A stretch of 64,000 nt of DNA from Nemertoderma westbladi (taxonomy: Eukaryota; Animalia; Xenacoelomorpha): NCBI GenBank assembly GCA_032718475.1, contig JAUCBJ010007937.1, positions 26,865 to 90,864 of the forward strand, written 5' to 3'. A program made the position numbers and the translations under genes. Shown here piece by piece: positions 1 through 24,662 of the stretch. The notes under the pieces are model-generated. The model was not told where the DNA came from and did no database searches. It saw only the letters and a list, made by a program, of their open reading frames with translations. How positions within the stretch are numbered: position 1 is the stretch's first letter; every line of letters begins with the position of its first letter.

Positions 1-1
1 G

Positions 2-1933
2 TATAATACTCAGAAGACTGGAACTGGATACATTTCCTACCTGTTATTCAATTGGGATTATAAGGAAGGTAAAAGAAACAAGTATATTGAAACTTATGGA
101 GAAGGTGATACTCCAGATATGAGTGAGTTTGAATCACAGCTTAAATGGAGAGGATGCGTGTATTGGGCTATTACGTCACCTCCAAGAGCGGTCTTACAAT
201 ATTATTTAGCAATAGAGTCGTCAGTGAATGTTTGCCTAATCGCCGACATTGTGTCTCGGACTCTCAAAAGACATCCACTTTGTCTCGGAGAAGATCATAC
301 GTTCTACATGGAAGGGAGAATTCGTACCGACGTGTTTAGACGATTCCTTGAACCCTTCTACAACTCCGACGCTCAATGTAATGCCTTTACTCGAGCAGGA
401 TTTAGCATATTTCGAGACGTGTATCTTCGCTGTGCGGGATCTCTTATCGAAAGACCATCTATGTTTACATTGTTACCTTATGAAGGAGAACGTATTGTGG
501 AAATTACGGATGAATCACGGCAGACGCGCGCGCCTATCGGTCACCTCGGTGATGATTTCAACGTAACTACTACGATCGCCGACGATCCTTTAGAGGAACT
601 TCTTGAAATAGAAAGGAACCTCCCGAAGAAATCTCAGACGGAGATTCGACAACTTGAAGCAACAGATGCTATAGTTTGTATACAACCTTCAGAAACCTAC
701 CAACCCATAGACCCAGATGATTACGATTATAGTATGGGAGGAAGCGCTCGACCGATTGGAGATCTTATATACGAACGAGTGTGGTACCCTGCTAATACGA
801 TGTGTAGTAAATGTGGCGTCGCTGGACATCATATGGCAAAGTGCAGTGGAAAGCACATTACTACGACTCAGCTAATCTGTGGATGGTGTGGGGATCAAGG
901 GTCTCATACCTTTTATACTTGCTGGAGATTTATGGCTCAATGTACTTACTGCAATATAAAAGGACATCGAGCATCTGAATGCCAACTGAGAGACATACCT
1001 TATGAACACGAATCTGTTAAACTCGTGAGGAAATTATTTGATGAGTGGGAAGATTTGGCCGACGAACATGTATCGGCACAAAGAAGACGGTTTCCGATGA
1101 GAGCGCATCTCGGATTTTGGGCGGTAAATCCCCAGACGATGATGTCGGAAGGATATATCTCCGCTATGCCTCAATATGACGAACTTATCGAGGTTGTCGA
1201 TATTTTGCCCCACGACAGCGGATTCCGAGTGATGCGCGAGTATCTACTACAGATTCACCCGGATAACAAAAACACGTGGAATTTTCAGAAAGTCGTTAAT
1301 CGGATTACGTATGGTGAATTCGATCGTTTCCGAACTGAAAAACGGAACAAGGGAGCTTGGTTAACCGTCGCATGGGCGTACCGAGCCGCGTTTTACCATA
1401 AACGTATACGAGTGAGCGTATTCGAGGAAGAAGAGGTCCTAGAGGCGACGAATATACCAGCCACTCCGGTTGCGCCGTCTGCACGTCACCCTCGGGAGGA
1501 CGGACAGGGTAGGATCATACGGGTCCAGAAAGTGGGCCAACAATTGAAGAAAATTATTAATGTAGAAGAACGCAAGGGAGTTGAGCCGACTATTCGAGTT
1601 ACTCGGGATACGGTATCACTTCCAAGAGAACCAGTAGGAGGATCGGGACATACACCAGCTGATCAACAGGGGGCGCAAGCTACTCTTGGGTCTGCGTCGT
1701 CCGCTTCTCACGCGTTCCCAGACGTTCTACCAACTGTAGTGACGACTGATCGGTCACGAGGAATTGGTCGAGGTTTTGGGATGCCAAATAGACGAATTTG
1801 CGAGGAAATAGTTGCACCGTCTCTCAACGTCCCAAGTAAACCAGTGACTCGCCCCATTAGTCCCATATCGCGAGCAAAGTCACCTGTGCGCAGTTTTCGA
1901 GGACGCGGCAGGGCTCGATCAACTAAGCGATAA
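2..1933 (+). CDS. 5'-partial accessory ORF of an LTR retrotransposon: C-terminal part of a DEDD-like exonuclease domain plus 3 CCHC zinc knuckles; homologue of 13061-15610
   Basis: The frame is open from nt 2 (YNTQKTGTGYISYLLFNWDYKEGKRNKYIETYGEGDTPD-M119). It has CSKCGVAGHHMAKC, CGWCGDQGSHTFYTC and CTYCNIKGHRASEC, then FDEWEDLA..RR..LGFW, matching FEEWADVG..RM..WGFF in the 849-aa ORF. The stop is followed directly by a purine tract. Confidence 0.75.
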   Translation, partial: YNTQKTGTGYISYLLFNWDYKEGKRNKYIETYGEGDTPDMSEFESQLKWRGCVYWAITSPPRAVLQYYLAIESSVNVCLIADIVSRTLKRHPLCLGEDHTFYMEGRIRTDVFRRFLEPFYNSDAQCNAFTRAGFSIFRDVYLRCAGSLIERPSMFTLLPYEGERIVEITDESRQTRAPIGHLGDDFNVTTTIADDPLEELLEIERNLPKKSQTEIRQLEATDAIVCIQPSETYQPIDPDDYDYSMGGSARPIGDLIYERVWYPANTMCSKCGVAGHHMAKCSGKHITTTQLICGWCGDQGSHTFYTCWRFMAQCTYCNIKGHRASECQLRDIPYEHESVKLVRKLFDEWEDLADEHVSAQRRRFPMRAHLGFWAVNPQTMMSEGYISAMPQYDELIEVVDILPHDSGFRVMREYLLQIHPDNKNTWNFQKVVNRITYGEFDRFRTEKRNKGAWLTVAWAYRAAFYHKRIRVSVFEEEEVLEATNIPATPVAPSARHPREDGQGRIIRVQKVGQQLKKIINVEERKGVEPTIRVTRDTVSLPREPVGGSGHTPADQQGAQATLGSASSASHAFPDVLPTVVTTDRSRGIGRGFGMPNRRICEEIVAPSLNVPSKPVTRPISPISRAKSPVRSFRGRGRARSTKR

Positions 1934-2237
1934 AAGGGAGGGCAAGGGTGGACGGAAGACTCGTGAGCCTTTCTTATGATTTGTGATTTATTTGAATTAT
2001 ATGTTTTATATTTAGGAAGTTTTGTATTCTGAAAGGGACTCATATTTAGTGAAACTTATATTCTATATTTGTGCTTATTCTGAACGCAATTTATATTTTA
2101 TAAGCAGTATTTGTACCTAAAGAGAAAGTTTTATAGACAGAAAATTTTGTGCTCAGAAAGACTCATATTTGTAATTATTCCAAACTTATGCAATCTACAT
2201 TTAGGTACGAAAGTATTTGTAATTACTTGAATTTATG

Positions 2238-2436
2238 CAATATTTGAGATGCAATAGTAGATGGAAGACTTGCGAGCCTTTCTTATTGTTTTCATTTATT
2301 TGTATTTGTAATTGTTTGAATTTTTGCAATATTTGAGATGCAATAGTAGATGGAAGACTTGCGAGCCTTTCTTATTGTTTTCATTTATTTGTATTTGTAA
2401 TTGTTTGAATTTATGCAATATTTGAGATGCAATAGA
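2238..2436. repeat. Tandem duplication of a ~89-bp unit (about 2.2 copies)
   Basis: gcaatatttgagatgcaatagtagatggaagacttgcgagcctttcttattg... is repeated; related to ggaagactcgtgagcctttcttat at ~1954. Confidence 0.8.
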
Positions 2437-2794
2437 TTTATATTGGTGAATTTAATTTAGATTTATATTGTACTTACTTAGTAAAGCCTTAAATACGTAA
2501 AGTTTGAATTTGTAATTAATTTTGTATCGAATCATTACGTAGAAAGGAAGTATTGTTTGAAACTTAATTGTAAATATGTAAGTACGCCCTAAGTATTCTA
2601 TAGTTTGATTGATTATTGGTGAAAACCGTATATTTTATGCACGATAATATCCTGTTTTCATGGAGCGGTATAGAATTATATTCCCTAAATGCCGTGGATT
2701 TTCAAAATTTTATTTTATTCGGATTAACTTTGTAAAGATTGCTTTGAGTTCTCACTCGTATTGGTTCTATCTATTATGCATCTATCGGTCAAGT

Positions 2795-2881
2795 GGTTCA
2801 GTAGCTCAGTTGGTAGAGCGTTGGAAATTATATGTGTAGTAGGTATCGAGTTCGAATCCTAGTAAGTGCGAATTATTTTTT
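2795..2881 (+). other. tRNA-derived Pol III promoter sequence (pseudo-tRNA or SINE head)
   Basis: A box TAGCTCAGTTGGTAGAGC, B box GTTCGAATCC and a T-run at 2876-2881; acceptor and anticodon stems do not pair well. Confidence 0.6.
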
Positions 2882-4639
2882 GTGCAGAATTTCAACTCAT
2901 TTAAATTAACCGCTACAAATTAATTGCATTTGTCTGTACCAATGAGGCTGTAGTTATTTGATTGTAACCAATGTCGTGCAAGTTATATATTAGCTGGACC
3001 AATAGCTATCTTTAAAACCCTGTTAGAACCTATAGAACAATCGGGAATTTTCTCGATTGATTGCGGCACAAATTTGGTATAAAAAGGTGCGATTTGTTCA
3101 TTAGTTGACAATTATATCTATCTAATTCAATCTCAATTGCTGATCTACCTTAACTTTCTGTCTTATTTCAGATTACATTGTTTATTGTATAATAGTTATT
3201 ATATCTTTTGTAATAAAAGTCAGAAATACTAGTCACATCTCAGCCCTTTTCTATCTGTTTTACTATGGTTTCACTACGGTGAACAAACTCAGGGACAGGA
3301 TGGCCGGCTAGAGATCGGGCCGCAGCAATGAACGGGAACATCACGGGAATGTAGACGAGAGACAACCCGCAATACCATTTAGAGTTATTCGCCCATCGCC
3401 TGAAAGGTTAGACAGCGTTCGATCCTTGCTACCTAAGTGTAAGACCAAAAGATCAAAAGGTAGACGTAGTGACACGCTGTAAGCCCAAAATTACATCATA
3501 GGGACTGTACCGTCTTGATTCAGGAAAAACCCACAGTAGACCTTCATATTCCTACGGGGGAGGGAGAGAGAGCAGATACTAGTACGCAGATAGGACGTAG
3601 GCACACCGGTACAAGGCATACACATTGGTTAGGGTGCAGCAAACTGTACGCTTAACTCTTGCTAAGTACAGGTGTGTGTGCGACTATTTACAGTACGACA
3701 GTGTCCATTACATCAGAACTTGTAGGCTAAGGGGGTTGCTGTGTTTTCACCTGAATTGGGATTGTACCGTTCAGGCGGTAGGGCAGTTTACACTAGGCGC
3801 AAATAAATTGAGGCTATCAGGGATATACTAACATCTACCGTGTCCCCGCCAACGCCCTAATAGGAAGTTACCCGGACTACCTGGGTGACTAAAATTCTAG
3901 ATAGGAGCCAGGATAGCTATTAGTACCCGTACGCCTACAGTAGTAAACTAACACATCTCTTCTTAGTATCAGGGACCTGGTACCTAAAATTGCCGAATTC
4001 TGGGCGTAGTATTAACCTTATGCCTGAATTTGAGTCCTGGAAATACGCAAGAGGGGAAGGAACCTTATCATTCGTGAGTATTGGACCTACAAGTTACAAA
4101 TTTAGAATATTCGTAAATGCACACCGCACCCAGTAATTATATATGTGAAGGAGCAAAACTGTTTTGACCGTTCAGAATTAACACACGCGCGTTAGAAATT
4201 ATTTACACCTCGAAATATATAAAATTAACTTTTGTCCGTACTGTGCTTTGCCCGCTAGTTAGACATCTCCAAATATCTGCTCTGTACCTAGCTAGCGTCC
4301 CTTTGCCCAACCATATAAATCACACCGCGGCAAAGTATACGAGCCTCTTAGTCCGTCAGTGAGTCAGCCTGATTTTAGGATTCGCTGCGCGGGATTTTGT
4401 TTCATCGAAGTTTGTCTGCTCGTAGACTGTTTTCTGCCTCACCGGTTATAAGAGATCGATACTGCAATATATTCGCTTACTTAGAGTTTACTGTTTTGGT
4501 GAGAAGGTCGGATTTATGATTTGATTCACAAACTTTACAGTAGGATATTGCAGGTATTGTTGCTGTCTCTTCAATTAGCTTAATATAGCATATAGTGACA
4601 GGACAATTGTCCCTAGACAATTATTATTGCCCTCAAGAC

Positions 4640-5690
4640 TATTTCCTCCCAATTACACTTATATTTCCACCAAAGACACTTATATTTCCCCCCAATGATA
4701 CTTATATTTTCCCCCAATTACACTTATATTTCCCTCTAATTACACTTATATTTCCCCCCAATGACACTTATATTTCCCCCCAATGGCACTTATATTCCCC
4801 CCCAATGACACTTATATTTCCCCCCGCCCCAAAGACACTTATATTTTCCCCCAATGACACTTATATTTCCCCCCGCCCCAAAGACACCTATATTTCCCCC
4901 AATGACACTTATATTTCCCCCCAATTACACTTATATTTCCCCCTAATTACACTTATATTTTGCCAATGATACTTATATTTCACCCAATGACACTTATATT
5001 TCCCCCAATGGCACTTATATTTCCCCTCAATGACACTTATATTTCCCCCCGCCCCAAAGACACTTATATTTCCCCCAATGACACTTATATTTTCCCCCAA
5101 TTACACTTATATTTCCCCCTAATTACACTTATATTTCCCCCCAATGACACTTATATTTCCCCCCAATGATACTTATATTTCCCCCAATGACACTTATATT
5201 TCCCCCCAATGACACTTATATCCCCCCCAATGACACTTATATTTCCCCCCAATGACTCTTATATTTCCCCCAAATTACACTTATATTTCCCCACAATGAC
5301 ACTTATATTTCCACCCAATCACACTTATATTCCCCCCCACCCCAATGACACTTATATTTCCCCCCCCCCCCAATGACACTTATATTTCCCCTCAATTACA
5401 CTTATTTTTTCCTCCAAATACACTTATATTTCCCCCTAATTACACTTATATTTCCCCCAATGACACTTATATTTCCCCCAATGACACTTATATTTCCCCC
5501 CCCCAATGACACTTATATTTCCCCCAATAACACTTATATTTCCCCCCGCCCCAAAGATACTTATATTTCCCCCAATGACACTTATATTTCCCCCAATTAC
5601 ACTTATATTTCCCCCTAATTACACTTATATTTCCCCCCAATGACACTTATATTTCCCCCCAATGACACTTATATTTTCCCCCAATGACAC
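4640..5690. repeat. Minisatellite, ~21-23-bp unit (CAATGACACTTATATTTCCCCC)
   Basis: Directly visible tandem array with variable C-run length. Confidence 0.95.
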
Positions 5691-7727
5691 GCATATTACG
5701 TGCGGCAACTCCTACGCATGTAGGAGTTGCGACCACAAGCGGTTTACTCTCGCAACTGAAAGATATGAGTATGAGAACCCTCCAGGAGAAATGCCGGCTC
5801 GGTCGTCGCCCGGGTCAACAAGGACCGCGTCCCCCAGTGGTACACCAGGCTGGGGTCGATAAATTGGCTACTGGAACAGAAGACAGAGAAGAAAGAAGAA
5901 CCAACCTGCTGAAATGTAAAAAGACACTAAGATTGCTACAATGAACGCACGCACGCTGAAAGCACAGAGCAAACAGGGTGACATGGTCGCTCTGGCAATG
6001 GAATATAACATCGACATCATCTGCATCCAAGAACGTCGGATTTGTCATGAAGACACTGCCATGAAGTACAATGACATTGGAAATGGATGGACTTTTGTAA
6101 CAAGCTCAGCAGTAAGAAACTCGGCCAATGCATCAATTGGAGGAGTTGGAATTCTGCTAAGTCAATTTGCACTTATGACCCTAAACAACATCGAATCTAT
6201 AAATTCCAGGGTTATGATAGCAACATTTGAGGGTAATCCCAAGACAACAGTAATATGTTGCTACAGTCCAACCAATGCCTCAGAGCCAGAACAAGCAGTC
6301 AAGTTTTATGAAGATCTGACTGGACTTATAAAGGACATTCCGAAACACAACGTTAAAGTCATTGCTGGTTACCTGAATGCTCAAATTGGCCCAGAAGACA
6401 TCAAGGGTTACACACATAACACCAGTTCTAATAGAAATGGGTACTTACTTTTAGACCTAATGGAAGAATGTGAATTGATACCAACAAACACCACATTCGA
6501 AAAGAGTAAGGGGAAGCTATGGACCTTTCAATACCCTAATGGAACCAAAGCACAACTGGATTACATCCTCATAAACAAAAAGTGGAGAAACAGCATGATC
6601 AACTGCGAGGCATACAGCTCGTTCAACCTAATTGGTTCGGACCACAGAATTGTGACTGCAGAGATCAGACTCAGTTTGAGAGCCAGCAAACCTAGGACAA
6701 GCAAGCAAATCAACTATGACTGGGAGAAACTCAGAACTGACAATGCAGTAAAGGATGCTTACACAGTAGAAGATCAAAACCGCTTTGAAGCACTCCAGTC
6801 AATGGATGAAGACCAGTCCACCGATTCAATATACCAGAATATAATAAAAGCCCACAAGGAATCAGCTAAGAGGCATATCCCCCAGAAACCCAAACGAAAA
6901 CAGTATGTGCCATGGCGAAACTCTGAGGTTACTTGTAAGAGAGAAGATCTTAAGATAGCCTACAAAGTAAAAACCGAACAACCAACAACCGAAAACATTA
7001 ACAAGGTTGAGAAAGCTAAGGATGATCTTAAATTGGCCTACAACATCAGCCAGGAAAAGTACATACAGGATAAAACTGAAGCAATTACAACTGCTCACAT
7101 ACAGCAACAATCAAGACTTACCTGTAATACCAGAAGTAATCGTTGCTGGCATTGGATTGTTATATTGTGACACAGAAGCGCAGGTACTCTCACCAGATGG
7201 TGAAACTGAGTTTTTCTCAATCCTGGCTGGCGTACTGCAAGGTGACACATTTGCACCATTACTATTTGTAATTGTGCTGGATTACGCAATAAGGACGGCC
7301 ACAAAGGGTGAAGATCTGGGACTCACACTTCAAGAACGCAGAAGTAGTAGATATCCGGCAACTACAGTCACAGACACCGACTTTGCGGATGACATCGCCC
7401 TGCTCTCTAATACGCTAGCAGATGTACAGCTTCTACTAAATAAAGTGGAGAGGGCTGATAATGAGGTTGGATTGCATATAAATGCTACCAAGACCGAATT
7501 CATGACCTTTAATGTTGATGGAAACTTGACAACCATTGATAATAATCAACTAAGTAAGGTCGATGACTTCCAGTACCTTGGATCATGGATAGAGAGTAGC
7601 AAAAAGGACATAGAAGTTAGGAAAGCAAAGGCTTGGGTAGCTCTATCAAGAATGGATACCATGTGGAAATCAGATTTCCCCAGGCACCTGAAGACTAAGT
7701 TCTTTCGAGCCACAGTGGAAAGTGTAT
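5691..7727 (+). mobile_element. RTE-clade LINE (APE endonuclease + partial RT), internally deleted and 3'-truncated
   Basis: APE motifs (MNARTL, CIQE, CYSPT, LDYIL, SDHR) and RT motifs (GVLQGDT, DFADD, FQYLGS). The sequence jumps at ~7125 from linker straight to IPEVIV; part of the missing segment is present in the sister copy at 61590-61965. Confidence 0.9.
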
Positions 7728-7740
7728 TTTTATTAAGTGA

Positions 7741-7897
7741 ATATTCCACATTTTTTCCATAATAATATTACACATTTTTTCCATAATAATATTCCACATT
7801 TTTTCCATAATAATATTACACATTTTTTCCATAATAATATTACACTTTTTTTCCATAATAATATTACACATTTTTTCCATAATAATATTACACATAA
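7741..7897. repeat. 24-bp minisatellite (ATATTACACATTTTTTCCATAATA), ~6 copies
   Basis: Direct tandem repeat just after the truncated LINE. Confidence 0.9.
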
Positions 7898-8191
7898 TAA
7901 TTGTTTGTGTTAATTTTGAGTGATTTTTCATGGTTGAAGAGTAAAATCCACAAATAGTTACTGCATTATATATAAAAAACGAAGAAAATAATTTAAATAG
8001 TAATAATAATCTTTCAACATTAATTTCTTAATAAAGGTAATTTCTGAAGGGGTTTGGGAACTGAATGTTTTTCAACTGGATGTTGGCGATGTACTAGATG
8101 TAACGCTGGTTTTACGTAGCGATAACGAAGTTGACACTAGAGAATCGACCTTCACGCAAACAATACGAGTTGTTAATTCCCGTCCACCGGA

Positions 8192-9702
8192 TCTAACCCT
8201 AAGGTAAATGTTATTCTACCTAACTATAATGTAAATTATATTCTACCTAACTATTATGTAAATGTTATTCTACCTAACTATAATGTAAATGTTATTCTAC
8301 CTAACTATAATGTAAATGTTATTCTACCTAACTATAATGTAAATGTTATTCTACCTAACTATTATGTAAATGTTATTCTACCTAACTATAATGTAAATGT
8401 TATTCTACCTAACTATTATGTAAATGTTATTCTACCTAACTATAATGTAAATGTTATTCTACCTAACTATAATGTAAATGTTATTCTACCTAACTATAAT
8501 GTAAGTGTTATTCTACCTAACTATAATGTAAATGTTATTCTACCTAACTATAATGTAAGTGTTATTCTACCTAACTATAATGTAAATGTTATTCTACCTA
8601 ACTATAATGTAAATGTTATTCTACCTAACTATAATGTAAATGTTATTCTACCTAACTATAATGTAAGTGTTATTCTACCTAACTATAATGTAAATGTTAT
8701 TCTACCTAACTATAATGTAAGTGTTATTCTACCTAACTATAATGTAAATGTTATTCTACCTAGCTATAATGTAAATGTTATTCTACGTTACTATAATGTA
8801 AATTATATTCTACCTAACTATTATGTAAATGTTATTCTACCTAACTATAATGTAAATGTTATTCTACCTAACTATAATGTAAATGTTATTCTACCTAACT
8901 ATAATGTAAATGTTATTCTACCTAACTATTATGTAAATGTTATTCTACCTAACTATAATGTAAATGTTATTCTACCTAACTATAATGTAAATGTTATTCT
9001 ACCTAACTATAATGTAAGTGTTATTCTACGTAACTATAATGTAAATGTTATTCTACCTAACTATTATGTAAATGTTATTCTACCTAACTATAATGTAAAT
9101 GTTATTCTACCTAACTATAATGTAAATGTTATTCTACCTAACTATAATGTAAATGTTATTCTACCTAACTATAATGTAAATGTTATTCTACCTAACTATA
9201 ATGTAAGTGTTATTCTACCTAACTATAATGTAAGTGTTATTCTACCTAACTATAATGTAAATGTTATTCTACCTAACTATAATGTAAGTGTTATTCTACG
9301 TAACTATAATGTAAATGTTATTCTACCTAACTATTATGTAAATGTTATTCTACCTAACTATAATGTAAATGTTATTCTACCTAACTATAATGTAAATGTT
9401 ATTCTACCTAACTATAATGTAAATGTTATTCTACCTAACTATAATGTAAATGTTATTCTACCTAACTATTATGTAAATGTTATTCTACCTAACTATAATG
9501 TAATTGTTATTCTACCTAACTATAATGTAAGTGTTATTCTACCTAACTATAATGTAAATGAAATTCTGCCTAACTACCTAACTATAATGTAAATGTTATT
9601 CTACCTAACTATATATCACGACTAACTCTACCTATCTAACACGAGTGGCAGGGATGGGGAAACCCAACAAATGGGAGGGCCGCACATGGCGGCTAAAACT
9701 GG
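8192..9702 (+). mobile_element. Possible non-autonomous Helitron carrying the 27-bp array
   Basis: A|TC at 8191/8192; 3' hairpin GCCGC-ACATG-GCGGC (9679-9693), then CTGG|T (CTRR|T) at 9699-9703. Confidence 0.4.
8205..9612. repeat. 27-bp satellite (TAATGTAAATGTTATTCTACCTAACTA), ~52 copies
   Basis: Period 27 (e.g. 8281 to 8308), highly homogeneous. Confidence 0.97.
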
Positions 9703-10119
9703 TTAGTCAACACGTAGGTAGAACTGTGTAATAAGTTTCCATACAATTTCCATATATCTGTTACCCAATATTAATTGTGTTCAATTGTCTATTATCTACT
9801 GCGGATGTCGGACGGTTTTTGACCGTCGTCGTTGCGTGTAGTACTTTGATTGTGCTGTAATCTATTTACCGGTATTTATACACATATCAGCTATTATTAA
9901 CAACGATAAAGCAATAACTCTTTTAACTCTGTTATTCATACCGGCCTGCAGCCTTTTCAACCTTGATAGTCATCACAAGCGCGGCGATGCGTACTACTGT
10001 ATACCACGACATAGAATTTCCCAGTCGGGATCCTTTGCCAACTCGGATCCCGTCACAATATAAGTTATGTTCAATCGAACCGCCTTTTAGTCTTCAAATA
10101 GGTATATATCTTGATTGAT

Positions 10120-10342
10120 CGCCTCACATGGGCCAGGGCAGTTTTCGTTTCGGCACGAATGCATTAAAGGGACCAGCCAGGGCGCATCTCTGCCTTGCAT
10201 CCTTAAGTGGTAGCTAAATGAGTACTCGAGTTTCCTCTGGGGAGTAAAGTTCTGGGGGGAACGCACTGGAAATAAGTCGTCAGACTTTGTGCGTAATCCC
10301 TGGCCTAGCGGCCGAAGAAAATTTACTTTTTTTTACTTTTGC
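10120..10342 (+). mobile_element. SINE remnant with conserved central domain (Meta/Nin-type)
   Basis: CTCTGCCTTGCATCCTTAAGTGGTAGCTAAATGAGTAC resembles the conserved invertebrate SINE core as I recall it; ends in a (TTTAC/TTTT) tail. Confidence 0.45.
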
Positions 10343-11816: not shown

Positions 11817-12346
11817 TGTGACGGAATCCAGGAGGGATCCCGATTTATCCGGTATTTAGTTCACGCGTCCCCGCCGTGTATAAAGAGTGAATGAAAGTAA
11901 AATGAGTTCTGAAGTTCGGTGTATAATAATAGAGGTATAAGATATAGATATATTGTATAGTATATGGAAGGCGGGATACGGTAACTAAAAGTCCCGTGCT
12001 CCCCTATCTAAACTAATTAACCTATGCTAGCACTACTGCACTGAGATAACTGAATTACTGATATTGGGTTACTGGTTATATTGCACGGTTGGCCTGATTA
12101 CTACCTAATCGATGCCTTGCCCCCCTCTGATTGGTTGATACCCTTGTTGGCGCCCTTTGGAGTGTTCCCGTTCACTCCACCTATTCTCTCTGGGTTAGGG
12201 GTTTGGCCCCTGACCCTCTATTGTGTGCTTCCTTCCCATTCTTATTGGGATGGCACGAGTTGGTTAATTATCCAATCTCGTGGCTCCCAATATTGCTTAT
12301 CGGCTTATAACTTTATGGGGTGTTAGCGGGATTGAATAAGCTAACA
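11817..12346 (-). repeat. 3' LTR of the Bel/Pao element
   Basis: Near-identical to 24663-25192; preceded on the minus strand by PPT GGGGGGGAG (12347-12355). Confidence 0.97.
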
Positions 12347-13060
12347 CTCCCCCCCATGCTATCTTCCCGGTAAGAAGATAGCATCAACCAAAAAAGTGCG
12401 CTACAATCCCGCTGGATCCCGATCTAGTATCGGGTGTGGGGTGGAATTCTTTTCTCTCGGAGTCGGCTTTCCAGGCCGCCCCCTATGGGTATGATAACGC
12501 TACCCTGTGTGCCTGGCGTCTCATGTCGGGCCGATCGCGCTCACCTCTCACGCAACTTTTGTTTCCCCAACACTTCCGCCCTATCTCTTCTTCACTCTCA
12601 CCCTAACTCTCTCACACTCGGACCTCCTCGTCCCTCACTCAGCCTCTTATTCTCCCCCCCCCACACTAGAATTGCGTCCGCACTCTCTCCGCACTCCGCA
12701 CTATTATTCCGTCCCTCAACCTCACTTCGACTGTCTCTTCCCTTCTGACGAATCTCCCCCCCCCCCTCTCGTGCCGTCGCACTCAAGAAGTGTGAAATTG
12801 TCTGGTGTCTCGTCCATAGTGCCATAGTCAGTTGTCCCCCAGTCCCAGTAGCTAATTGAGAAAGGTTGTATGACTATAGTACTTACTCCGAACGTATATA
12901 TATTTCTAGATTACTAATTACTACGTACGTACATACAAATTGCACTTATATGATTATTTTGCATTAATTGAATTTGTACTTAATAGTTCGTACATCCCAC
13001 GCGGCGCCTACCAGGCGTACCACGTCCAAGTCCCAGTCTCTCTCCCTCGACTCTGGGAAC

Positions 13061-15610
13061 CTATCTGTTCCTCCGGGGGTAGTTCCCCCTGGCGTCCTCT
13101 TCCCTGGGTCGTTTCTTGGTTATCACCGTTCCTCTGGCATCATCCGCTTTCTGCTTTCGGACCTTCGCCGCCACTTCCTTGCTGATCCCGGTCGTTGGCT
13201 CCTTGGGCGCTGGTGTTATTAGTGCCCGATATCGCTTCGCCGGTGGCCCCTCAGAGTGGCCCGGTTGTCTCCCTCTAGTGGCGTCCCATAGGATCATTTT
13301 CATTGCCTTTGGTACGTGCTCCGCCAAGAAATCCCTAAACTCCCTTCGGTTCTCTGGCGTCCACCTGTCCAGATACCTTTGCGTGTTCATCACTCCAGCG
13401 TACGACGCCGCCGTTGCTACCTCTTGGTAGGTAAACGGTAGCCTCCGCTTTATGATTTCCATGTGAGTCTCCTGATTGATAAGGAAGAAACCCCACTTGA
13501 ACTCCTGGGCCTTCATGCGCTGGCGCGTCATGGCCCCGACGTCGGCCCACTCCTCGAATCTTGTGAACTTCTCCTCGTCGTTCATCCAGTCGCACTCGCG
13601 CCCGTAGTGTCCCCGAAAGTGGCACTTTGGACATCGGTTATGCAACCGTGGACACGCCCCCATCCTGTGACTTGGTTCTCTGCAGTAGAGACAAAAGGTT
13701 CCCTGTTGGAACCGGTATAGGCAGCTGCTTTCCCGATGGGTCTGTCTCCCACAGTAGTCGCAGCCGAGTACCAATGTCTCCCGTCCCACCTCGTCTTTCG
13801 TCCCAAGCGATCTCCGCGGTCTGTGGAGTCGCTGGTAGGCGAACTTCTCTACGTTGGTCTCCCTGTCTACGTCGATCTCTCCGCCCCTCTCGGGCATCGT
13901 CTCCCCGAATACTATCCGTGGTGCCGTCCCCGGTTGCTCGCCCAACCTGATGGTGCTCCCCGCGAAATCCATCGCCGGCTCCTCGTGCACCCAGGTCCGC
14001 TTGCCGGATCTGTTCCAGAAGGCCCTCGCCCCACTGGCCGTCACCACCCTTCCGCCAACCCAGTCCGTGTCCGAGTGGCCTATCCTCTCGATGGGCGGCA
14101 TCTCTCCGAACTCGTCGTCGTCGTCCTCCTCTTCTGGTAGTGTCTCCAATCCCGGTATCCCGATGGATCCACTATGTCCCTTCCCGCCTTGGCTCTCGCC
14201 CGTAGCTCTCCATCCCTCTAGCTCCCTTAACTTCCTTGGCGGTTGGTCGCCCTCGGCGCCCGCTGGTATGGGCATCGTTCGCAACCCCGACGTCGACTGT
14301 TTCGGCGATCCCACCGTCCATCCCAATTCTCGCCCCAGAGACTCCCCCGAACTCCCTGATGAAGTCCAATGAAGCTCGTCTAGGCCCGCCTGTTCCTCGA
14401 AGCCGTAACTCTGTGTCCTGGCCTCCTCTTCCCTCTCCTCTGCTTCTATCCTCTCCCGTCTAGCGACTTCTTCCAGTCGCTTTGCTTCTCGTCTATCCGT
14501 CTCTAGCTGCTCCCATCTCTGATACGGTGTATCTGTCTCCCCGTCTACCAGATGTCGGCTGTTGTAATACACCGACTCGCCCTTCAGCCCCGGGTGGTCT
14601 ACCAGACCGTCAAAAGCCACTTTAAAGGCTCTCCTGTAGCTTAGGGGTGATCCCGATAACAGAAATGCCCCTGGTTCCCTCTCGATAATCACGGTCATGA
14701 ATAAGTTAAGCAAACTTATCATCATCCAGTCCTCCTGCAGGATATATCGCTTCTGATATACCTTTATCGCTCCCCTGCGGAACTGATATACCTCCTGCTT
14801 TCCCGGTCTCGCTCCCCACTTTAGCGAGTTCGCTAGTTCTGCTCCGTATTCTTCCCTAAACTTCCCCCAGTCCATCGGTTTGTGGCACACGAGCCCCAAT
14901 AATTGGCCCATCGCCACCGCCCCGCATTGGCCTGTGTTTTCGACTACCCCCAATCCATCCGGTGCCGTCATAGCCATAAAGACTTTCTGCATATCCAGGA
15001 GGTTGGTGGCGTCCGGACCGATGATCCTCTCCGCGTCCTCGCGAATCGCCGATCCCACTTTCGTCGTCGACTTCTCTCTTACTAAGACTTGTACCGCTTT
15101 CGGTAATCGGTCTAATTTCGGCCCGTCCTTCTTCCCATACGTCCCTAGGTCGAATAAGAAGATGTCCCCATTTGGCGCGGCCAAATGTAGGAGTATGGTC
15201 CTGGCCGACCCTGCCATTCCTCGTCTCGAACCCGCTTCGTCTTCCACGGTTCCCTCGTCATCTAGGATCATATATCCTCCTCTGTTGACGGACTCTATGA
15301 ATCTCTTCCAGTCCTTCCTCGGTGATTCCCTCAGGTATTTCGGAATCCCGAACTTCGCCTCGTCCCCTTTCACCACGTAATGGAAGTGTTGGAAAATCGC
15401 GTTGTCTAGCGACGGCGTCCCGTAGGTCCTGACCAGCCGCTGTTCGTGCATCTCTCTGAAGTGATCCTGCAGCGCTCGCGCCGCGTGACCCCTTTCCAAC
15501 CTCTCGTAGTATCCTCTCGTCTTCTCTTCCGGATGTCTCTCGGTGAAATCCACCAGTATTTCCTTTCCTCCTGACTCCGCCTTTCTCTTTCTGATCAACT
15601 TACTCGCCAT
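13061..15610 (-). CDS. Accessory ORF (849 aa): DEDD-type 3'-5' exonuclease-like domain, coiled coil and 3 CCHC zinc knuckles
   Basis: ILDDEG (ExoI D117/E119), LLHLA..IFLFDL, LP..V..L..KVGSAIRED (ExoII D192), LLDM, G..LLG..K, W, QKRYILQED (ExoIII-like); then CDYCGRQTHRESSC, CLYCREPSHRMGAC, CPKCHFRGHYGREC. No signal peptide or TM helix, so not env. Confidence 0.8.
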   Translation of the reverse strand: MASKLIRKRKAESGGKEILVDFTERHPEEKTRGYYERLERGHAARALQDHFREMHEQRLVRTYGTPSLDNAIFQHFHYVVKGDEAKFGIPKYLRESPRKDWKRFIESVNRGGYMILDDEGTVEDEAGSRRGMAGSARTILLHLAAPNGDIFLFDLGTYGKKDGPKLDRLPKAVQVLVREKSTTKVGSAIREDAERIIGPDATNLLDMQKVFMAMTAPDGLGVVENTGQCGAVAMGQLLGLVCHKPMDWGKFREEYGAELANSLKWGARPGKQEVYQFRRGAIKVYQKRYILQEDWMMISLLNLFMTVIIEREPGAFLLSGSPLSYRRAFKVAFDGLVDHPGLKGESVYYNSRHLVDGETDTPYQRWEQLETDRREAKRLEEVARRERIEAEEREEEARTQSYGFEEQAGLDELHWTSSGSSGESLGRELGWTVGSPKQSTSGLRTMPIPAGAEGDQPPRKLRELEGWRATGESQGGKGHSGSIGIPGLETLPEEEDDDDEFGEMPPIERIGHSDTDWVGGRVVTASGARAFWNRSGKRTWVHEEPAMDFAGSTIRLGEQPGTAPRIVFGETMPERGGEIDVDRETNVEKFAYQRLHRPRRSLGTKDEVGRETLVLGCDYCGRQTHRESSCLYRFQQGTFCLYCREPSHRMGACPRLHNRCPKCHFRGHYGRECDWMNDEEKFTRFEEWADVGAMTRQRMKAQEFKWGFFLINQETHMEIIKRRLPFTYQEVATAASYAGVMNTQRYLDRWTPENRREFRDFLAEHVPKAMKMILWDATRGRQPGHSEGPPAKRYRALITPAPKEPTTGISKEVAAKVRKQKADDARGTVITKKRPREEDARGNYPRRNR

Positions 15611-16044
15611 TCCGAATGTTCACTCGCTCACCTGCAAGGTGGTGCCTTACCAAGGCGCAATACAGATGAGTGATGTATCTAGGATGTTCTGTACAGTTCG
15701 ATAATGGCCTATTTCCTACTTAACTGCGCCTTTAACCTAAATTATTCCTAATTAATTTTGAAGCTAGTAAATGAGCGTAATTTACAATTTCTGTCCGTTA
15801 CTAACTAACGGTACTTACGTACCCTCTAACTAACTCTCTAACTGGCGGTACTACGTACCTCCTAACTAACTAACTAACTAGGTACTACGTACCTTCTTAC
15901 TAACTCTCTGCCTACTAACTGCGTACCTACCATGTACTATTTTTTTTATTTTATTTTATTATTTTGTTTGTGGGAAGGGCGTCTCGCCCTCAATCCCACC
16001 CCCTCAGTCCAAAACTTGGACGACTAAACTTTCCTCTAACTTTG

Positions 16045-19000
16045 CTAAGGTGCCCCTTCCAATAGACAGTATTTACCTACAGCTCTCCTGTAAGTTTTTC
16101 TGTCCTTCGCACCTATCTTTCCACCTATCCGCACTTCTACCGATCGGACTCTTCCGTCCTCGTCGGAGTAGGTGCCTACAACTCTCGCCAACCGCCATTG
16201 GTTGTTGATGATAGTATCATCCGTGACGATTACGAGATCTCCTGCTCTCAACTCCCTGTTTGACTTCCTCCACTTGCTTCGTTTATGGAGCGTGGGTAGG
16301 TATTCTTCGACCCACCTCCTCCAATACTCTGCGCTTATTGCTTTAGCGACTTTCCAACTTTGGCGGGAGTGTATGTCGTCTGGGTCTACACCCCGCATAT
16401 CGATGGTCGCTGGCCTCTCCATTAGGAAATGGCTAGGCGTTAGCACGTCTAGCGACTCAGGGTCATCATTCTCCGGATATAGCGGTCTGCTATTAATGAT
16501 CCCCTCGCACTTCGCAAGTACTGTACGTAAGACGTCCTCGGTGACCATGTGGGTGTTCATTAGCTTCGTCATTAGACGCTTTGAACTGCCCACCAGTCTC
16601 TCGATGCATCCTAGTGTATGTGGTGCATACGGCGTCCTTCTCTCCCACTTTTCTTGTCGTCTCCTCATGGCTGCCTTGACTTCTTCTCCCTCCAAGGTGT
16701 CCAGGGCCTCTGCCATCTCACTCTCTGCGCCCACAAAGTTGGTGCCGTTGTCGCTGTATATCACTGCGATCGTCCCACCTTTGCGGTCCCTAAACCTTTC
16801 TAAGGCGTTAATGAACGCTGATGTGGTTGCATCTTGGGCGAGTTCTATCCCTACCGCCCGCGTATTGTTGCATACGAAGATAATGCCGTAGCGTTTCTCC
16901 ATGTGTCGCATCACTTTGATCTTTATCGGCCCGAACATGTCCACACCGCAATGCGTAAATGGCGGGTCGTGCTGTCTTACCCTACTCGCCGGTAGTGGCG
17001 CCATCTCCTGTACGGCTCGCTCCTTCTTCGCTCGTCGGCAGGTCTGGCACTGCCCCACTACCGCTTTAACCTTCTTCCTTAATTGTTTGACCCAATAGGT
17101 CCTCCTTATCTCTGTGAGGGTTCGGTTGGTGCCCCCGTGCAATATCGATTTGTGGGAGTCCCATATAATCTGGTGGACTATTGGCGATCCTGTAGGAATG
17201 ATGATGGGTTTCGGTGGTACGACTATGCTGTTGTTGTATCCCACCCTAGAATTCATTACTAGAATCCCGTCGTCATTGAGTTGTGGCGACAGCGTAATCA
17301 GCTCGCTGTCCCGTCGGAGGTGCTGTTGGTTACCGACGCGTTCCACCTCGTCACCGTAGTTCTTCCGTTGTTCATAGCGGATCACTGCCTTGGCCGCTCC
17401 TTCCAGATCTATGGTTGTCCTGATCTTCTTGCCCTTGCCGACTCCCGCAAGGAAATTCCCGAAGGCTCTCCAGTACGCCACTAGTTTCTTGGTCTTATAC
17501 CAACTAGAACTGTAGCTGAGGAGTTTATCCGTTGGGTTATCGCACAGTTCCCTTCCTGGTTGCACGTCCCTAATCTCCCTCACCATCTGGGAGTATATCT
17601 CTTCTCCATCTGAATCTCCCTCTTCTCCTTCTGATACTACTTCCGAGCCCGGGTCCACCTTCCTCATCGGCGGCCAGGCCTCCCTATCGCTCAGAAATTG
17701 TGGCCCATGTTGCCACAATACTTCCTTCTTCAGGAAAGTGTGGCGTTCCACGCCCCTCGACAGCAAGTCCGCTGGGTTCTCGTCTGTTGGGCAGTAGTGC
17801 CACCTTTCCAGTTCTGTGCTCGCCCTTATTTCGTCCACTCTATTCGCGACGAATATCGGGTATCTCGTCCTTTCGTTGTATAGCCAACCAAGCACTACCA
17901 TGGAGTCCGTCCAGTAGTGTGTCTCCACTATGTTGGGAATAGTATCCACTAGGTAGGCTGTGGCTCTTACTCCTAGTCTCGCAGCTGTCAATTCTAACTT
18001 GGGAACTGATGCTGAATCTGGCGGCGTTGACTTTGCTTTGCTAAAGGCTAGCCTTGGCTTATGAGCCCCCTCTCGTTCTACTAAGTAGAGTGCCGCTCCG
18101 TACGCTTCCAACGACGCGTCGGAGAACATGTGTAGGTCCAGATTCGTCATGTTCCCATCCGGGAAATACACCCTTGGCATGTTGTATGTTCCCATCTTCT
18201 CCAAGTTTCCTGTCCACTTGCTCCACTGTTTCTTGATTTCCTCTGGTACCTCTACGTCCCACTCATCTTTCAATTTGTATACTCTCTTGAGTATCTGTTT
18301 CCCCGTGACTAATAATGGGGATGCTAGGCCTAGGGGATCGTATATCCTTGCTATATACGATACATAGCCCCTCTTCGTGTGGATGTCTGCGCCCTCCTGG
18401 CTCAGCTGATACTTCAGTTCGTCTGTCTCTCTATCCCACACGATTCCCAATGCCTTCTGCTGGGATTCCGTTCTCTTAATCGCCATGTCCTGCCCTTTGG
18501 CTGTTGTGGGATTATCCATGGTCGATTCTGGTTTCCTGTCCTCTATGGCTTTGATAAATTCTTCCGAACTGGATTGGAATTTGGTCAGGTTAAAGCCGGA
18601 TCCTTTTAGGATGTCGCGAACCTCGCGCCCTGTATCCAGTATCTCCTTAACCGTATTTCCAGACTCCATTCCGTCGTCTACGTAGAAGCCGCGTCGAATC
18701 ATATCGACGGCCCTACTGCTGTATCTATCTTCCTTCCCCTTTACTGTGTCTCTCACTGCCATAGTCGTCATAAATGAAGACGACTTGGCCCCCATGTTCT
18801 GTACTATCATCTTATATGCTGGTATTATCGGCGGTTCTTCTTCGCCGTTATACCATAAGAAGCGTTGACTGTCGCTATCTTCTTCCGTTACACGGACTTG
18901 GTTGAACATGCCTTCTATGTCACACGTGAAGGCGTGTTTCCCATTTCGAAATCTAAGTAACACCTCTATGCCCGAATTGTAAATGTTTGGGCCTTCTAAC

Positions 19001-21012
19001 AGGTAGTCGTTTAAGCACTTTCCATCGGTCTTTGCCGATGCGTCGACTACCATCCTTAGTTTACCTTTCTTTGGATCTAAAGCCACGTGCAGTGGCAGGT
19101 AATATGTTCTATCCGTGTTCGGCTCGTCGACCGGTAACTCCACGGCCCATCCTTTCTCGACGTACTTCTTAATTGTTCTGTGGATGTACTCATTCTTCTC
19201 GGGGCTCCGTTTTAGTGTTTGTTTCAGTTTGCGGAGTCTCGTGAGTACCATCCCCCTATTGTCGGGCAGCGTTATCTTCGGTAGTTTCCATACCATTCCT
19301 ATAGTATACCATCCCTCATCGCACGTCATTGATTCCTCCACGCTTTGTAGTGCCTGTTTGTCTTCTACCGAGGTCCCGACCCCGGTTTCTTTCAGTCCCT
19401 CGAAATCTTGTCTGAGCAGTCTTTTGAGCTGCTCCTCTGCTCCCTCATCACCCATTTCCTGCATTGTCCCCGCGAACATGCATCCTGATGTCTCCGACAT
19501 CCTAAATGGTATCTTGCTCTTGATTGGACCACTCAGCGTCCACCCGAATGGTGTTAATATGGCCACCGGGTCACTCTGCTTGTCTTCACCGAAGACCGTT
19601 TGCATTCTTTCGTGGGCCGTTGGGCAGTCCATACCTACTATGATGGATACCTTCCTAACGTCCACGTCTGGGATTGAGAAGTCAATGTTGTCCAGGAATT
19701 TATACTGCTCGACCTCGATGTTGGTTGGCCGCCTGGCATTGATATTAATTGACTCTATCACTTGAATGGGGTCGATGGTTGCCCCATAGTCGCATCCCGG
19801 TGCCACTGCTGCAATTGCGCACCGTCCTGTTCTCATCTCCAGGATCTCATCTTTACTAGAGATGGTTGTTACCGCCATTCTGCTTGGCCTCGTTCTCAAT
19901 CCTATCTCCTCGGCCACCCATTCCTCGACTAATGTGAAGGCAGCTCCACTATCAACCAGCATTAGTGTTGTTACTGATCGATTGCCTTCCCCGATCACTC
20001 GTACTGGTACTACTCCAAGTAGCACCGTTCCTCTTTTCTTCGCCCCTACTGTGCTCGTCGCCATCGTTTGGCCTCTCCTTTGGCCAAATTTCATTGGCCT
20101 CTCCTTGCACTCCCTTGCTCTATGTCCACTCATTACACATCGCGAGCAGATTTTATTGCTGAACGCATAATCTATCTGATCTTGCCTAGGTAGCGCCTGC
20201 CAGTACCTGCAGTTCATAGTTTGATGAGGCGCATTTGCGTGTAGCTGGCATTTGCTCTTTGGGTCGTAGCCCTCTTTATACAGTGCATTGCGTATCGCAG
20301 TTGCGTTCGTACCAAAGTCCCTACTATTCTTATTGTTTGGGTTTTGCCTATTGGACGTACTGGGGTTATGTTTATTCGTGTTATTATTGTTTCCCTGTCC
20401 GTTCCATGATGTTGTCTTATCCTCGGCTAGCTGTGGACTTGCAGTCCCCTGCGTCGCTGCATATGGCAATGATTGCCTGAGTCTCGGTAATGCGTTCGAT
20501 GTGTTGTGCTCTGGTTTCGGTCTATGGTAGTCTGTCTTCGGTCCCTTTCCCAGGCTGTCTTCGCTATAGACTGGGTCAGTTATTAGTTCAGCCTCGTAGT
20601 TTAAGAAGTTTGACATTTCTTCTAAACCCGGTTCCGCACCCTTCTTATCTCGAGTGGAGAAGGCAATTTTCCTCCATTTGTTGCGCAGCCAGTTTGGTAG
20701 TGCCTGCGCTATCTTGGTGATGTTGTTGGACGCATTGAGCTCGTACGGCGCGTCTAGCGTCTTCAGCACGATTAGCGCCTTTTCGACTTTGTTAGCGAAC
20801 GTCTTAATGCTAACGGGATTATCCTGTAGGCCACCCGATGTTATGCCTCTCAGCGTCTGCCTGATGATCTTGGCCGGGTGCCCGTATTCCCTATCCAGTG
20901 CCCGCCATGCTGTCGTGAAGCCGCCCTCTATTCCTTGATATTGCCTCACGATGTCGTATGCTGGGCCTCCCGTGTACACTTGTAGATACTTTAGGCACTC
21001 CGCCTGCGTCAA
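16045..21012 (-). CDS. pol: Bel/Pao Gag(C-term)-Pol polyprotein
   Basis: Gag core and Zn knuckles (CSRCVMSGHRAREC), protease LVDSGA, RT (CDIEGMF, YVDD), RNase H FSDAS, integrase HHCC plus GVDMFGP/SDNGTNF/ERLV, and Pao C-terminal WRRWVEEYL..R.KW. Confidence 0.97.
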   Translation of the reverse strand: MTQAECLKYLQVYTGGPAYDIVRQYQGIEGGFTTAWRALDREYGHPAKIIRQTLRGITSGGLQDNPVSIKTFANKVEKALIVLKTLDAPYELNASNNITKIAQALPNWLRNKWRKIAFSTRDKKGAEPGLEEMSNFLNYEAELITDPVYSEDSLGKGPKTDYHRPKPEHNTSNALPRLRQSLPYAATQGTASPQLAEDKTTSWNGQGNNNNTNKHNPSTSNRQNPNNKNSRDFGTNATAIRNALYKEGYDPKSKCQLHANAPHQTMNCRYWQALPRQDQIDYAFSNKICSRCVMSGHRARECKERPMKFGQRRGQTMATSTVGAKKRGTVLLGVVPVRVIGEGNRSVTTLMLVDSGAAFTLVEEWVAEEIGLRTRPSRMAVTTISSKDEILEMRTGRCAIAAVAPGCDYGATIDPIQVIESININARRPTNIEVEQYKFLDNIDFSIPDVDVRKVSIIVGMDCPTAHERMQTVFGEDKQSDPVAILTPFGWTLSGPIKSKIPFRMSETSGCMFAGTMQEMGDEGAEEQLKRLLRQDFEGLKETGVGTSVEDKQALQSVEESMTCDEGWYTIGMVWKLPKITLPDNRGMVLTRLRKLKQTLKRSPEKNEYIHRTIKKYVEKGWAVELPVDEPNTDRTYYLPLHVALDPKKGKLRMVVDASAKTDGKCLNDYLLEGPNIYNSGIEVLLRFRNGKHAFTCDIEGMFNQVRVTEEDSDSQRFLWYNGEEEPPIIPAYKMIVQNMGAKSSSFMTTMAVRDTVKGKEDRYSSRAVDMIRRGFYVDDGMESGNTVKEILDTGREVRDILKGSGFNLTKFQSSSEEFIKAIEDRKPESTMDNPTTAKGQDMAIKRTESQQKALGIVWDRETDELKYQLSQEGADIHTKRGYVSYIARIYDPLGLASPLLVTGKQILKRVYKLKDEWDVEVPEEIKKQWSKWTGNLEKMGTYNMPRVYFPDGNMTNLDLHMFSDASLEAYGAALYLVEREGAHKPRLAFSKAKSTPPDSASVPKLELTAARLGVRATAYLVDTIPNIVETHYWTDSMVVLGWLYNERTRYPIFVANRVDEIRASTELERWHYCPTDENPADLLSRGVERHTFLKKEVLWQHGPQFLSDREAWPPMRKVDPGSEVVSEGEEGDSDGEEIYSQMVREIRDVQPGRELCDNPTDKLLSYSSSWYKTKKLVAYWRAFGNFLAGVGKGKKIRTTIDLEGAAKAVIRYEQRKNYGDEVERVGNQQHLRRDSELITLSPQLNDDGILVMNSRVGYNNSIVVPPKPIIIPTGSPIVHQIIWDSHKSILHGGTNRTLTEIRRTYWVKQLRKKVKAVVGQCQTCRRAKKERAVQEMAPLPASRVRQHDPPFTHCGVDMFGPIKIKVMRHMEKRYGIIFVCNNTRAVGIELAQDATTSAFINALERFRDRKGGTIAVIYSDNGTNFVGAESEMAEALDTLEGEEVKAAMRRRQEKWERRTPYAPHTLGCIERLVGSSKRLMTKLMNTHMVTEDVLRTVLAKCEGIINSRPLYPENDDPESLDVLTPSHFLMERPATIDMRGVDPDDIHSRQSWKVAKAISAEYWRRWVEEYLPTLHKRSKWRKSNRELRAGDLVIVTDDTIINNQWRLARVVGTYSDEDGRVRSVEVRIGGKIGAKDRKTYRRAVGKYCLLEGAP

Positions 21013-24000: not shown

Positions 24001-24602
24001 CCAAAACGCATTAGGTAATTAAAGTGTCTATCCGAATCACCTAGTCGTTTCCTCAGTCTCACCTCGTCTATCGTTTTCCCTTTTCTGGCCTCCTCTAGTA
24101 GTCTCCGGGTCGCGTTGTAGGCCCGTCGAAGTTGCTCAGAAACCCCGACGTCCTCGTCGCCGACCTCTCGTCCGTCTCTCCGGGTTCGACGTCGTACCGG
24201 CGGCCCCACCGTCGCCGTTTCGGCGGGCCGCTCGTCGCCCTCGGCCTGTGGCTGGCCGGCGGCATCGGTACCGATATCTCGTTCGCCTCTCTGCGTCCGG
24301 GGCCGCACCGTCGGCCCCACCTTCGCCGTTTCGGCGGGCCGCTCGTCGCCCTCGGCCTGTGGCTGGCCGGCGACACCGGTGCGTCGACCCCCGTCCCGTG
24401 TCGACTCGTCTCCGTCTCCCTCCGTCCCGCTCTCTCTTTCTCTCGGTTCGAGCTCGGGTTCCAGGCCCCCCTCGTCCTGAACTGCCGGATGACCCGTTAC
24501 CGATGGGTCCGGCGTTGTGGGCCTGTATCGCCTGGTTGCGGCCTCGCGGATCGTTAGGTCTTCGTCTGGGGTCCGCGTCGGTGTCTCGCCCGATTGACTC
24601 AT
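21009..24602 (-). pseudogene. gag: Very long N-terminal Gag region, split by frame changes (ORFs 23076-24602, 22190-23260, 21009-21938)
   Basis: The last piece ends FKFDGSRPEEYLQFRRMY..TKT*; one extra A in the A5 run at ~21015 restores TKNLTQAECLKYL into the pol ORF. Other breaks lie at or near C-homopolymers (23079-23096, 22242-22288) and at ~21975-22100. Confidence 0.75.
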
Positions 24603-24652
24603 CTCGCTGGTGATTGGTGGCTGATGGTTTGGCTAGCTAGGGCAGCGGTTGG

Positions 24653-24662
24653 TTTTAGTTAC
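24653..24662 (-). promoter_or_regulatory. Non-tRNA primer-binding site candidate (GTAACTAAAA)
   Basis: Lies immediately after the 5' LTR CA and lacks TGG; exact reverse complement of LTR segment 24827-24836. Confidence 0.5.

Follow-up and report, generated by a model that had tools for sequence, protein, structure and literature searches.

Do retrotransposons of Nemertoderma westbladi (Xenacoelomorpha) keep a family of accessory genes in which an exonuclease is joined to zinc knuckles, or was such a gene captured once? The question arises from a stretch of 64,000 nucleotides, here called the window (positions 26,865 to 90,864 of contig JAUCBJ010007937.1, assembly GCA_032718475.1), which holds two long open reading frames (ORFs) that may be of this kind. 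ORF A lies at the left edge (2-1933, + strand); ORF B, of 849 amino acids, belongs to a BEL/Pao retrotransposon, element B, on the - strand. A sequence-only reading had proposed that ORF A is a second, highly diverged member of the family of ORF B and an old, selectively maintained accessory gene of a retrotransposon lineage. We find that ORF A is part of a multi-copy mobile element and that it very probably shares its knuckles and the domain behind them with ORF B. We put the probability that both encode one exonuclease-knuckle accessory family acting on the 3′ ends of element RNA at about 0.58.

ORF A and the repeat that carries it

ORF A is an open frame of 643 codons with no start codon within the window; its 5′ end lies beyond the window edge. 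In 500 shuffles the longest frame was 250 amino acids, and the earlier statement that both frames are open holds. From left to right, ORF A comprises the putative C-terminal half of a DEDDy-like exonuclease domain (2-300, proposed from ORF B), three CCHC zinc knuckles (803-982, residues 268-327; CX2CX4HX4C, CX2CX5HX4C and CX2CX4HX4C), a post-knuckle domain in common with ORF B (983-1400, F[DE]EW.D...GF) and an Arg/Lys-rich C-terminal tail (1802-1930). Pfam zf-CCHC matched the knuckles with E 4e-4 and 20.7 bits, against a cut-off of 20.8. The post-knuckle domain, delimited by an anchored alignment to ORF B, belongs to no known family and is predicted to be helical, at low confidence (model pLDDT 48). 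A basic tail also terminates ORF B.

Contigs of sequencing runs X1-X5 were aligned to the window (X1 and X3 come from one sample). The stretch carrying ORF A was present in 5 of the 9 listed runs, from 4 studies, and no RNA run is among the listed runs that contain it. On 1-4700 we placed 7072 contigs from X1, 2641 from X4, 469 from X2 and 19 from X5. From base 1 contig depth stayed high up to about 4570, dropping at 4550-4600, and all three organism-A runs gave very high depth and many variant contigs across 1-4570. Depth summed over contigs does not equal copy number; the word depth of single contigs within ORF A was 539-2393 in X2 and 6751-10304 in X4, up to 1700-10300 overall, with diverged single pieces at about 15-50. 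Since depth is still high at base 1, the repeat continues upstream of the window. The sequence is thus interspersed and multi-copy, with a sharp right end at about 4573.

An intact frame under purifying selection, for which evidence follows, would also suit a single-copy or domesticated host gene. The very high depth with its many variant contigs, the continuation of the repeat past base 1 and its sharp right end largely refute that explanation, which we consider extremely improbable. The stretch is a multi-copy mobile-element family, and a single-copy host gene is excluded. We also ruled out that ORF A is a gag gene or the ORF1 of a long interspersed element: an untranslated region (UTR) and a terminal segment come after it where pol would be expected.

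Differences between the copies of ORF A point to selection on the protein. Among the 11 listed, 8 are synonymous where 3.6 are expected (P 0.007), and 9 affect the third base of a codon (P 0.0014). Of 39 indels, 12 were listed, and the frame contains none of these. A few low-depth joints in ORF A (depth 15-81) resemble single deleted or diverged copies. Against this stands the nature of the sample: the variants are the 40 best supported of 148 differing places, preselected by support and mutually linked, and so not independent of one another. With that discount, the data support the view that ORF A codes for protein, is subject to purifying selection and belongs to a multi-copy mobile element, as the sequence-only reading had supposed. 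The open frame, the shuffle control, the copy state and the synonymous excess together mark it as a likely accessory 3′ ORF of that element.

How far the probable homology with ORF B reaches

Element B is an intact BEL/Pao element of 13.4 kb (11817-25192, - strand) with TG...CA long terminal repeats (LTRs) of 530 bp at 24663-25192 and 11817-12346. It is a young, complete insertion, because the LTRs differ at 3 of 530 sites and the element has a 5-bp target-site duplication and a polypurine tract adjoining its 3′ LTR. Its gag-pol frame (16045-21030, - strand) encodes DUF1759, protease, reverse transcriptase, Peptidase_A17, integrase and DUF5641, with Pfam E values of 4e-8 for DUF1759, 4e-40 for Peptidase_A17 and 1e-23 for DUF5641; a Pao-type pol thus lies between two LTRs with a target-site duplication. 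ORF B (13061-15610, - strand, start at 15610) follows in sense, 435 bp downstream of the gag-pol frame. Its layout is a DEDDy-like domain (about residues 115-294), a coiled-coil/acidic linker, three knuckles (617-673), the domain shared with ORF A and the basic tail, and this domain order is common to both ORFs.

BLASTP of ORF A against ORF B returned a single significant match, which pairs A 268-381 and B 617-717 over 114 amino acids at 26% identity (E 4e-8). It spans the knuckles and about 50 residues beyond them. The link between knuckles 2 and 3 is identical in length and pattern in both, a 6-residue C-x-R-x3-C, and both ORFs continue from three knuckles into F[DE]EW.D...GF, as had been noted by eye. 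Knuckles resemble one another, however, and the A-B knuckle score of 77 is only somewhat above the 46-67 reached with two unrelated gag knuckle arrays in the window. We therefore looked beyond them. In a free local alignment without the knuckles, the post-knuckle parts gave P 0.07-0.14; anchored at the last cysteine, 8 and 33 of 3000 shuffles did as well (P 0.003-0.011), as did 1 of 456 real decoy segments. About a dozen tests of A/B similarity were run, and the best P values here and below need discounting accordingly. The alignments suggest that ORF A is very probably homologous to ORF B over the knuckles and the next domain. At the DNA level the ORFs show no similarity (best E 0.17), in agreement with the earlier observation, and their GC contents at third codon positions (GC3) are 0.39 (A) and 0.67 (B).

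Upstream of the knuckles the comparison is less favorable. Aligned whole, these segments gave P 0.43 with BLOSUM62 and 0.23 with BLOSUM45 (3000 shuffles), which weighs against a shared exonuclease; P values of 0.019 and 0.0055 were obtained only in windows chosen beforehand. Under both matrices the best register pairs A 2-92 with about B 224-313, and MAFFT finds it unaided. It is the register of the sequence-only reading, whose quoted motifs are all present in both proteins. They include Y-x3-E, Y68 and E72 in A (positions 203-217) and Y289 and E293 in B. Outside the knuckles the alignment was thus significant on the post-knuckle side when anchored, and not, without preselection, on the exonuclease side. 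We regard the N-terminal match as suggestive only.

Is the N-terminal part of ORF B itself an exonuclease? A search of Atlas language-model features with residues 60-370 returned 30 matches, 24 of which carry PF01612, with a score of 0.93 and 167 of 256 features in common. In the best PF01612 cluster 34% of the members carry this domain, and the top scores of 0.94-0.95 belong to three unnamed eukaryotic clusters. By eye, ORF B has D117-x-E119 (ExoI), D192 (ExoII) and Y289-x3-E293 (ExoIII), in the order of what we take to be the RNase D/WRN-type motif pattern. In an RNase D profile made from the E. coli protein and 66 of 120 relatives, D192 falls on the ExoII aspartate, with E 0.079 and a probability of 0.7%.

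Several results count against an exonuclease. No match above the curated cut-off was found for A or B in Pfam, NCBIfam or PHROGs. A hidden Markov model of RNase D (67 sequences, HMMER) scored B no better than shuffles and gave no match for A. An Atlas search with A 1-165 showed no exonuclease family among the matches listed, which are unrelated families with 120-137 features in common. At ExoIII both ORFs show E where D is usual, so Y-x3-D is absent from A (68-72) and from B (289-293); B has a D one position on. With this change, nuclease activity may be kept, lowered or lost. On balance, a DEDDy 3′-5′ exonuclease fold is highly likely for the N-terminal part of ORF B. For ORF A, about 75 residues of the putative C-terminal half lie within the window, and the ExoI/ExoII region lies outside it. 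Since no family matches A independently, calling it an exonuclease depends wholly on the alignment to B; we consider it fairly probable that its N-terminal part is the same enzyme.

These results leave room for a narrower kinship, in which A and B share an RNA-binding module of knuckles and helical domain, and the N-terminal part of A is no exonuclease, its by-eye match being due to chance or to a decayed remnant. The unbiased upstream P values of 0.23-0.43 favor this, as does the failure of Atlas and the hidden Markov models to yield an exonuclease for A, and the aligned upstream stretch of A requires gaps of 7 and 5 residues. Yet the best upstream alignment falls, under both matrices, on the first residues of A and the ExoII-ExoIII stretch of B, in the expected order and including a W and the Y-x3-E, and 4 of 193 decoy segments score equally. 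We consider a shared module without the enzyme unlikely. Under the reading we prefer, A and B are probably each a DEDDy-type 3′-5′ exonuclease joined to three RNA-binding zinc knuckles. The idea of a second family member thus holds for the knuckles and the adjoining domain, where homology is very probable; the proposed exonuclease of A has no independent match.

Models and wider searches added little. The AlphaFold models, with pLDDT 36 for the DEDDy-like domain (single sequence) and 48 for the post-knuckle domain, were of too low quality to be of use, and in a fold search for the latter none of 104 matches reached E 0.001. Among 5.8 billion proteins searched, 0 of 5118 candidates was confirmed for A and 0 of 7986 for B, for which the words came from the first 500 residues only. 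With B 1-370 against 1.84 billion representatives, the sole match was a repetitive protein of 2805 amino acids, in which 19 residues were matched 14 times, and we set it aside as spurious. No related locus was confirmed in metagenomes or viral contigs, no PDB sequence matched A or B, and plasmids gave one weak, unrelated match (E 2). The searched libraries are poor in animal transposons, and blanks in them are not proof of novelty.

The 3′ end of the element carrying ORF A

What kind of element is it? ORF A ends at 1933 and is followed by a purine tract (1934-1948) and TG. The sequence-only reading had the ORF end right at this tract, at 1948, and an LTR begin at 1949. The tract and TG are real, and in 1900-3500 this is the purine-richest context of a TG; 10 such sites exist on the + strand of the window. 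Across 1934-1950, however, the ratio of depth after to before was 0.44-0.87 in all 4 runs, without an upward step, and an 89-bp repeat unit of the UTR recurs in degenerate form at 1942-1998. For these two reasons we rejected an LTR start at 1949, and 1934-1950 is probably part of the 3′ UTR, not a junction of polypurine tract and LTR. The putative UTR (1934-3290) is T/G-rich, about 1.35 kb long, and contains 2.5 tandem copies of the 89-bp unit at 2213-2435. By comparison, 0.7 kb separates the ORF B stop from its LTR. At about 2700-3110 within this UTR, depth is 2-5 times higher, and a tRNA-like stretch is visible by eye near 2790-2870. ARAGORN and Rfam gave no match for it; the segment is probably an insert resembling a short interspersed element.

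A better LTR candidate lies further right. A finer alignment of contigs to 3150-4640 revealed a depth step at about 3300, of 2.7-fold, 2.8-fold and 2.8-fold in X1, X3 and X4. The step coincides with a candidate polypurine tract (3291-3300, 9 of 10 purines) before a TG at 3301, and the repeat family terminates in CA at 4572-4573 in this copy. The candidate 3′ LTR (3301-4573) is thus about 1.27 kb long, with TG...CA ends, and forms the right end of the repeat. TATAAA occurs at 4218 and 4314. We considered the opposite orientation of this segment as well; TATAAA and AATAAA are found in it on the + strand only. A start at 3280 (TGAA...TTCA) was rejected: it has no purine tract, and the depth of 3250-3299 is at the interior level. 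Since the step at about 3300 is present in 3 of 4 runs and none is seen at 1934-1950, we consider 3301-4573 the more likely 3′ LTR.

There are points against this assignment. X2 has no step at about 3300 (ratio 0.79). At 4572 none of the listed junction rows has A as its next letter, a reading based on 21 of the 439 and 24 of the 126 loose-end rows. The window shows no pol, 5′ LTR or target-site duplication for this element, whose upstream part lies outside it. X2 has another peculiarity: in one of its contigs, 701 bases long and at depth 37 (3733-4434), there are 95 differences, among which A>G changes crowd together at 4143-4261. The pattern suggests ADAR-type editing, either of an RNA or of a copy that then entered the genome. 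Given also the missing LTR step, X2 may not be a plain DNA library.

ORF A might also belong to another element class (gypsy, Penelope-like or non-autonomous), the ORF then coming from a pool that retroelements exchange and not being inherited with the lineage. The 3′ region of A shows no similarity to the LTR of element B (best E 0.067), the candidate LTR measures 1.27 kb against 530 bp, and the GC3 values differ as given above. Exchange has been reported for rotifer DEDDy ORFs (PMC5408684). The junctions without a final A and the behavior of X2 would fit as well. A polypurine-like tract and TG at a depth step in three of four runs speak for an LTR element instead. In 1900-4700 neither a hammerhead nor any other Rfam match was found, and 2900-4620 has no split direct or terminal inverted repeats of the DIRS/Ngaro type (the longest inside the repeat are 9 direct and 10 inverted), so the marks of Penelope-like or DIRS/Ngaro elements are absent. 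We rate a different class as quite improbable, and an LTR element as likely. A different class could hold together with either of the functions weighed below.

Possible function, known systems and neighboring features

We propose that ORF A is an intact gene, that the multi-copy mobile element around it is likely an LTR retrotransposon with its right end near 4573, and that A and B form one accessory-gene family with the order exonuclease, linker, three knuckles, helical domain and basic tail. The protein would be expressed from a separate 3′ ORF. Within the particle or ribonucleoprotein of the element, its putative nuclease may bind the 3′ ends of RNA or trim them, and the knuckles and basic tail may tether it to RNA. 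Among the functions considered, 3′-end processing of the element's RNA or primer with such a tether is a tentative choice, somewhat short of even odds.

The same protein family might instead serve counter-defense. The nuclease, active or a dead decoy by virtue of Y-x3-E, would hit host Piwi-interacting RNAs (piRNAs), small interfering RNAs (siRNAs) or their precursors, as a mimic of mut-7, Nibbler or EXD1. The fold class is common to mut-7, EXD1 and Maelstrom (PMC5408684). A separate ORF has been kept in two very diverged families, one of them recently inserted (3 of 530 LTR sites) and the other multi-copy, and fast divergence would fit an arms race. On the other hand, the listed differences within the family are mostly synonymous, and PMC5408684 reports no clear link between DEDDy ORF3s and copy number. 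We regard counter-defense as unlikely, though slightly less so than a shared module without the enzyme.

A bolder reading draws on element B. Its first 10 bases after the 5′ LTR (24653-24662, - strand) are exactly complementary to LTR positions 357-366 (24827-24836, - strand), a match equaled in 6 of 20000 shuffles. In the minimum-energy fold the 10 bases are predicted to be paired (z -2.7); in the centroid they are unpaired. A tRNA-type primer-binding site was not seen in element B. The arrangement resembles self-priming of the Tf1 type (PMC4600332), and the accessible literature that we searched yielded no such self-priming in BEL/Pao. On this reading, an undescribed, old group of LTR retrotransposons would possess a dedicated exonuclease-knuckle protein of about 850 amino acids that matures a self-primer (element B having this Tf1-like site complementary to the element's LTR) or attacks host piRNAs and siRNAs, and animal retrotransposons would so gain a priming factor or an enzymatic counter-defense. 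We regard this as unlikely.

Cellular DEDDy exoribonucleases (RNase D, Rrp6, mut-7, WRN-exo/EXD) represent the fold class proposed for ORF B. Unlike A and B, they are single-copy host genes with Y-x3-D, and none matches A or B in sequence. The RNase D matches include PDB 7C42 and 7C45, 'CCHC-type domain-containing protein', and a DEDDy domain with a CCHC finger does occur in cells; 7C42 is presumably the trypanosome RNase D. A Cer element of C. elegans may have been described with an exonuclease ORF.

The closest mobile parallel is found in bdelloid rotifers. Rodriguez, Kenefick and Arkhipova (2017) described DEDDy ORF3s in the LTR elements Juno and Vesta, acquired at least twice and also present in Athena/Terminon elements, with exchange between lineages (PMC5408684). 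In these ORF3s DEDD is changed to DEED, the function is putative, and a role in RNA 3′-end processing or silencing was proposed. Like them, ORF B follows the pol of an LTR element as an ORF of its own, with a putative RNase D/WRN-type exonuclease and a non-canonical acidic tetrad; the likeness is drawn from published descriptions. Unlike them, element B is BEL/Pao, and the tetrad of ORF B is D-E-D-E, the second E falling at ExoIII. The accessible part of that paper mentions neither a triple knuckle nor a domain after it for Juno or Vesta, and notes a Cys-His-Cys motif for Vesta2/5. Dada DNA transposons of Laccaria and Ectocarpus also have a DEDDy domain with CCHC fingers in the same protein, but there it lies inside a DDE transposase and retains all four DEDD residues (PMC3706591); transposon-borne DEDDy domains recur in reviews (PMC6431247, PMC5718144). 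Tas, Cer7, Cer13 and the Atlas elements, like element B, have a BEL/Pao backbone that gained an extra gene 3′ of pol; theirs is an env-like viral fusion protein, to which A and B show no match (PMC554778, PMC9094657). BEL/Pao elements are described as metazoan only (PMC3601003).

DEDDy capture by retroelements is thus not new as a basic idea, while its occurrence in a BEL/Pao element and the fusion to knuckles seem to be new: in the accessible literature, which lacks most subscription journals and Repbase, we found no paper on a BEL/Pao DEDDy-knuckle ORF or on the fusion. If ORF A encodes the same protein, two families that cannot be aligned as DNA have both kept an enzyme-like accessory gene of about 850 amino acids. 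The keepers would be one young, intact BEL/Pao copy and one high-copy family, suggesting a real benefit to the element, and DEDDy capture would extend beyond rotifers. A and B would then offer a concrete protein for the question of why retroelements acquire 3′-5′ exonucleases, left open in PMC5408684.

The rest of the window is rich in repeats. The 5′ part of element B (21009-24632, - strand) contains three more overlapping long frames, of 517, 357 and 362 amino acids, ahead of gag-pol. At 3.6 kb this region is unusually long for a BEL gag start; Pfam matched none of the three frames, which may reflect programmed frameshifts, splicing or lesions. Directly adjoining the 5′ LTR are two near-identical RTE-like non-LTR copies (25309-32503, - strand), 4798 bp apart, with a Cys-rich frame of Ser/Thr repeats between them. 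Minisatellites occupy 4640-5697 (22 bp, 47 copies) and 8058-9600 (27 bp); a frame of 471 amino acids in the latter was discarded as a spurious product of the repeat array. A gypsy-type LTR element with direct repeats (47208-51988, + strand) has a frame of 1199 amino acids, in which a 12-bp tandem array (about 49785-50312) takes the place where reverse transcriptase/RNase H would be. Finally, an intronless frame of 1224 amino acids (55092-58766, - strand), named by eye as an ABCC/MRP-like transporter, is probably a host gene or a retrocopy.

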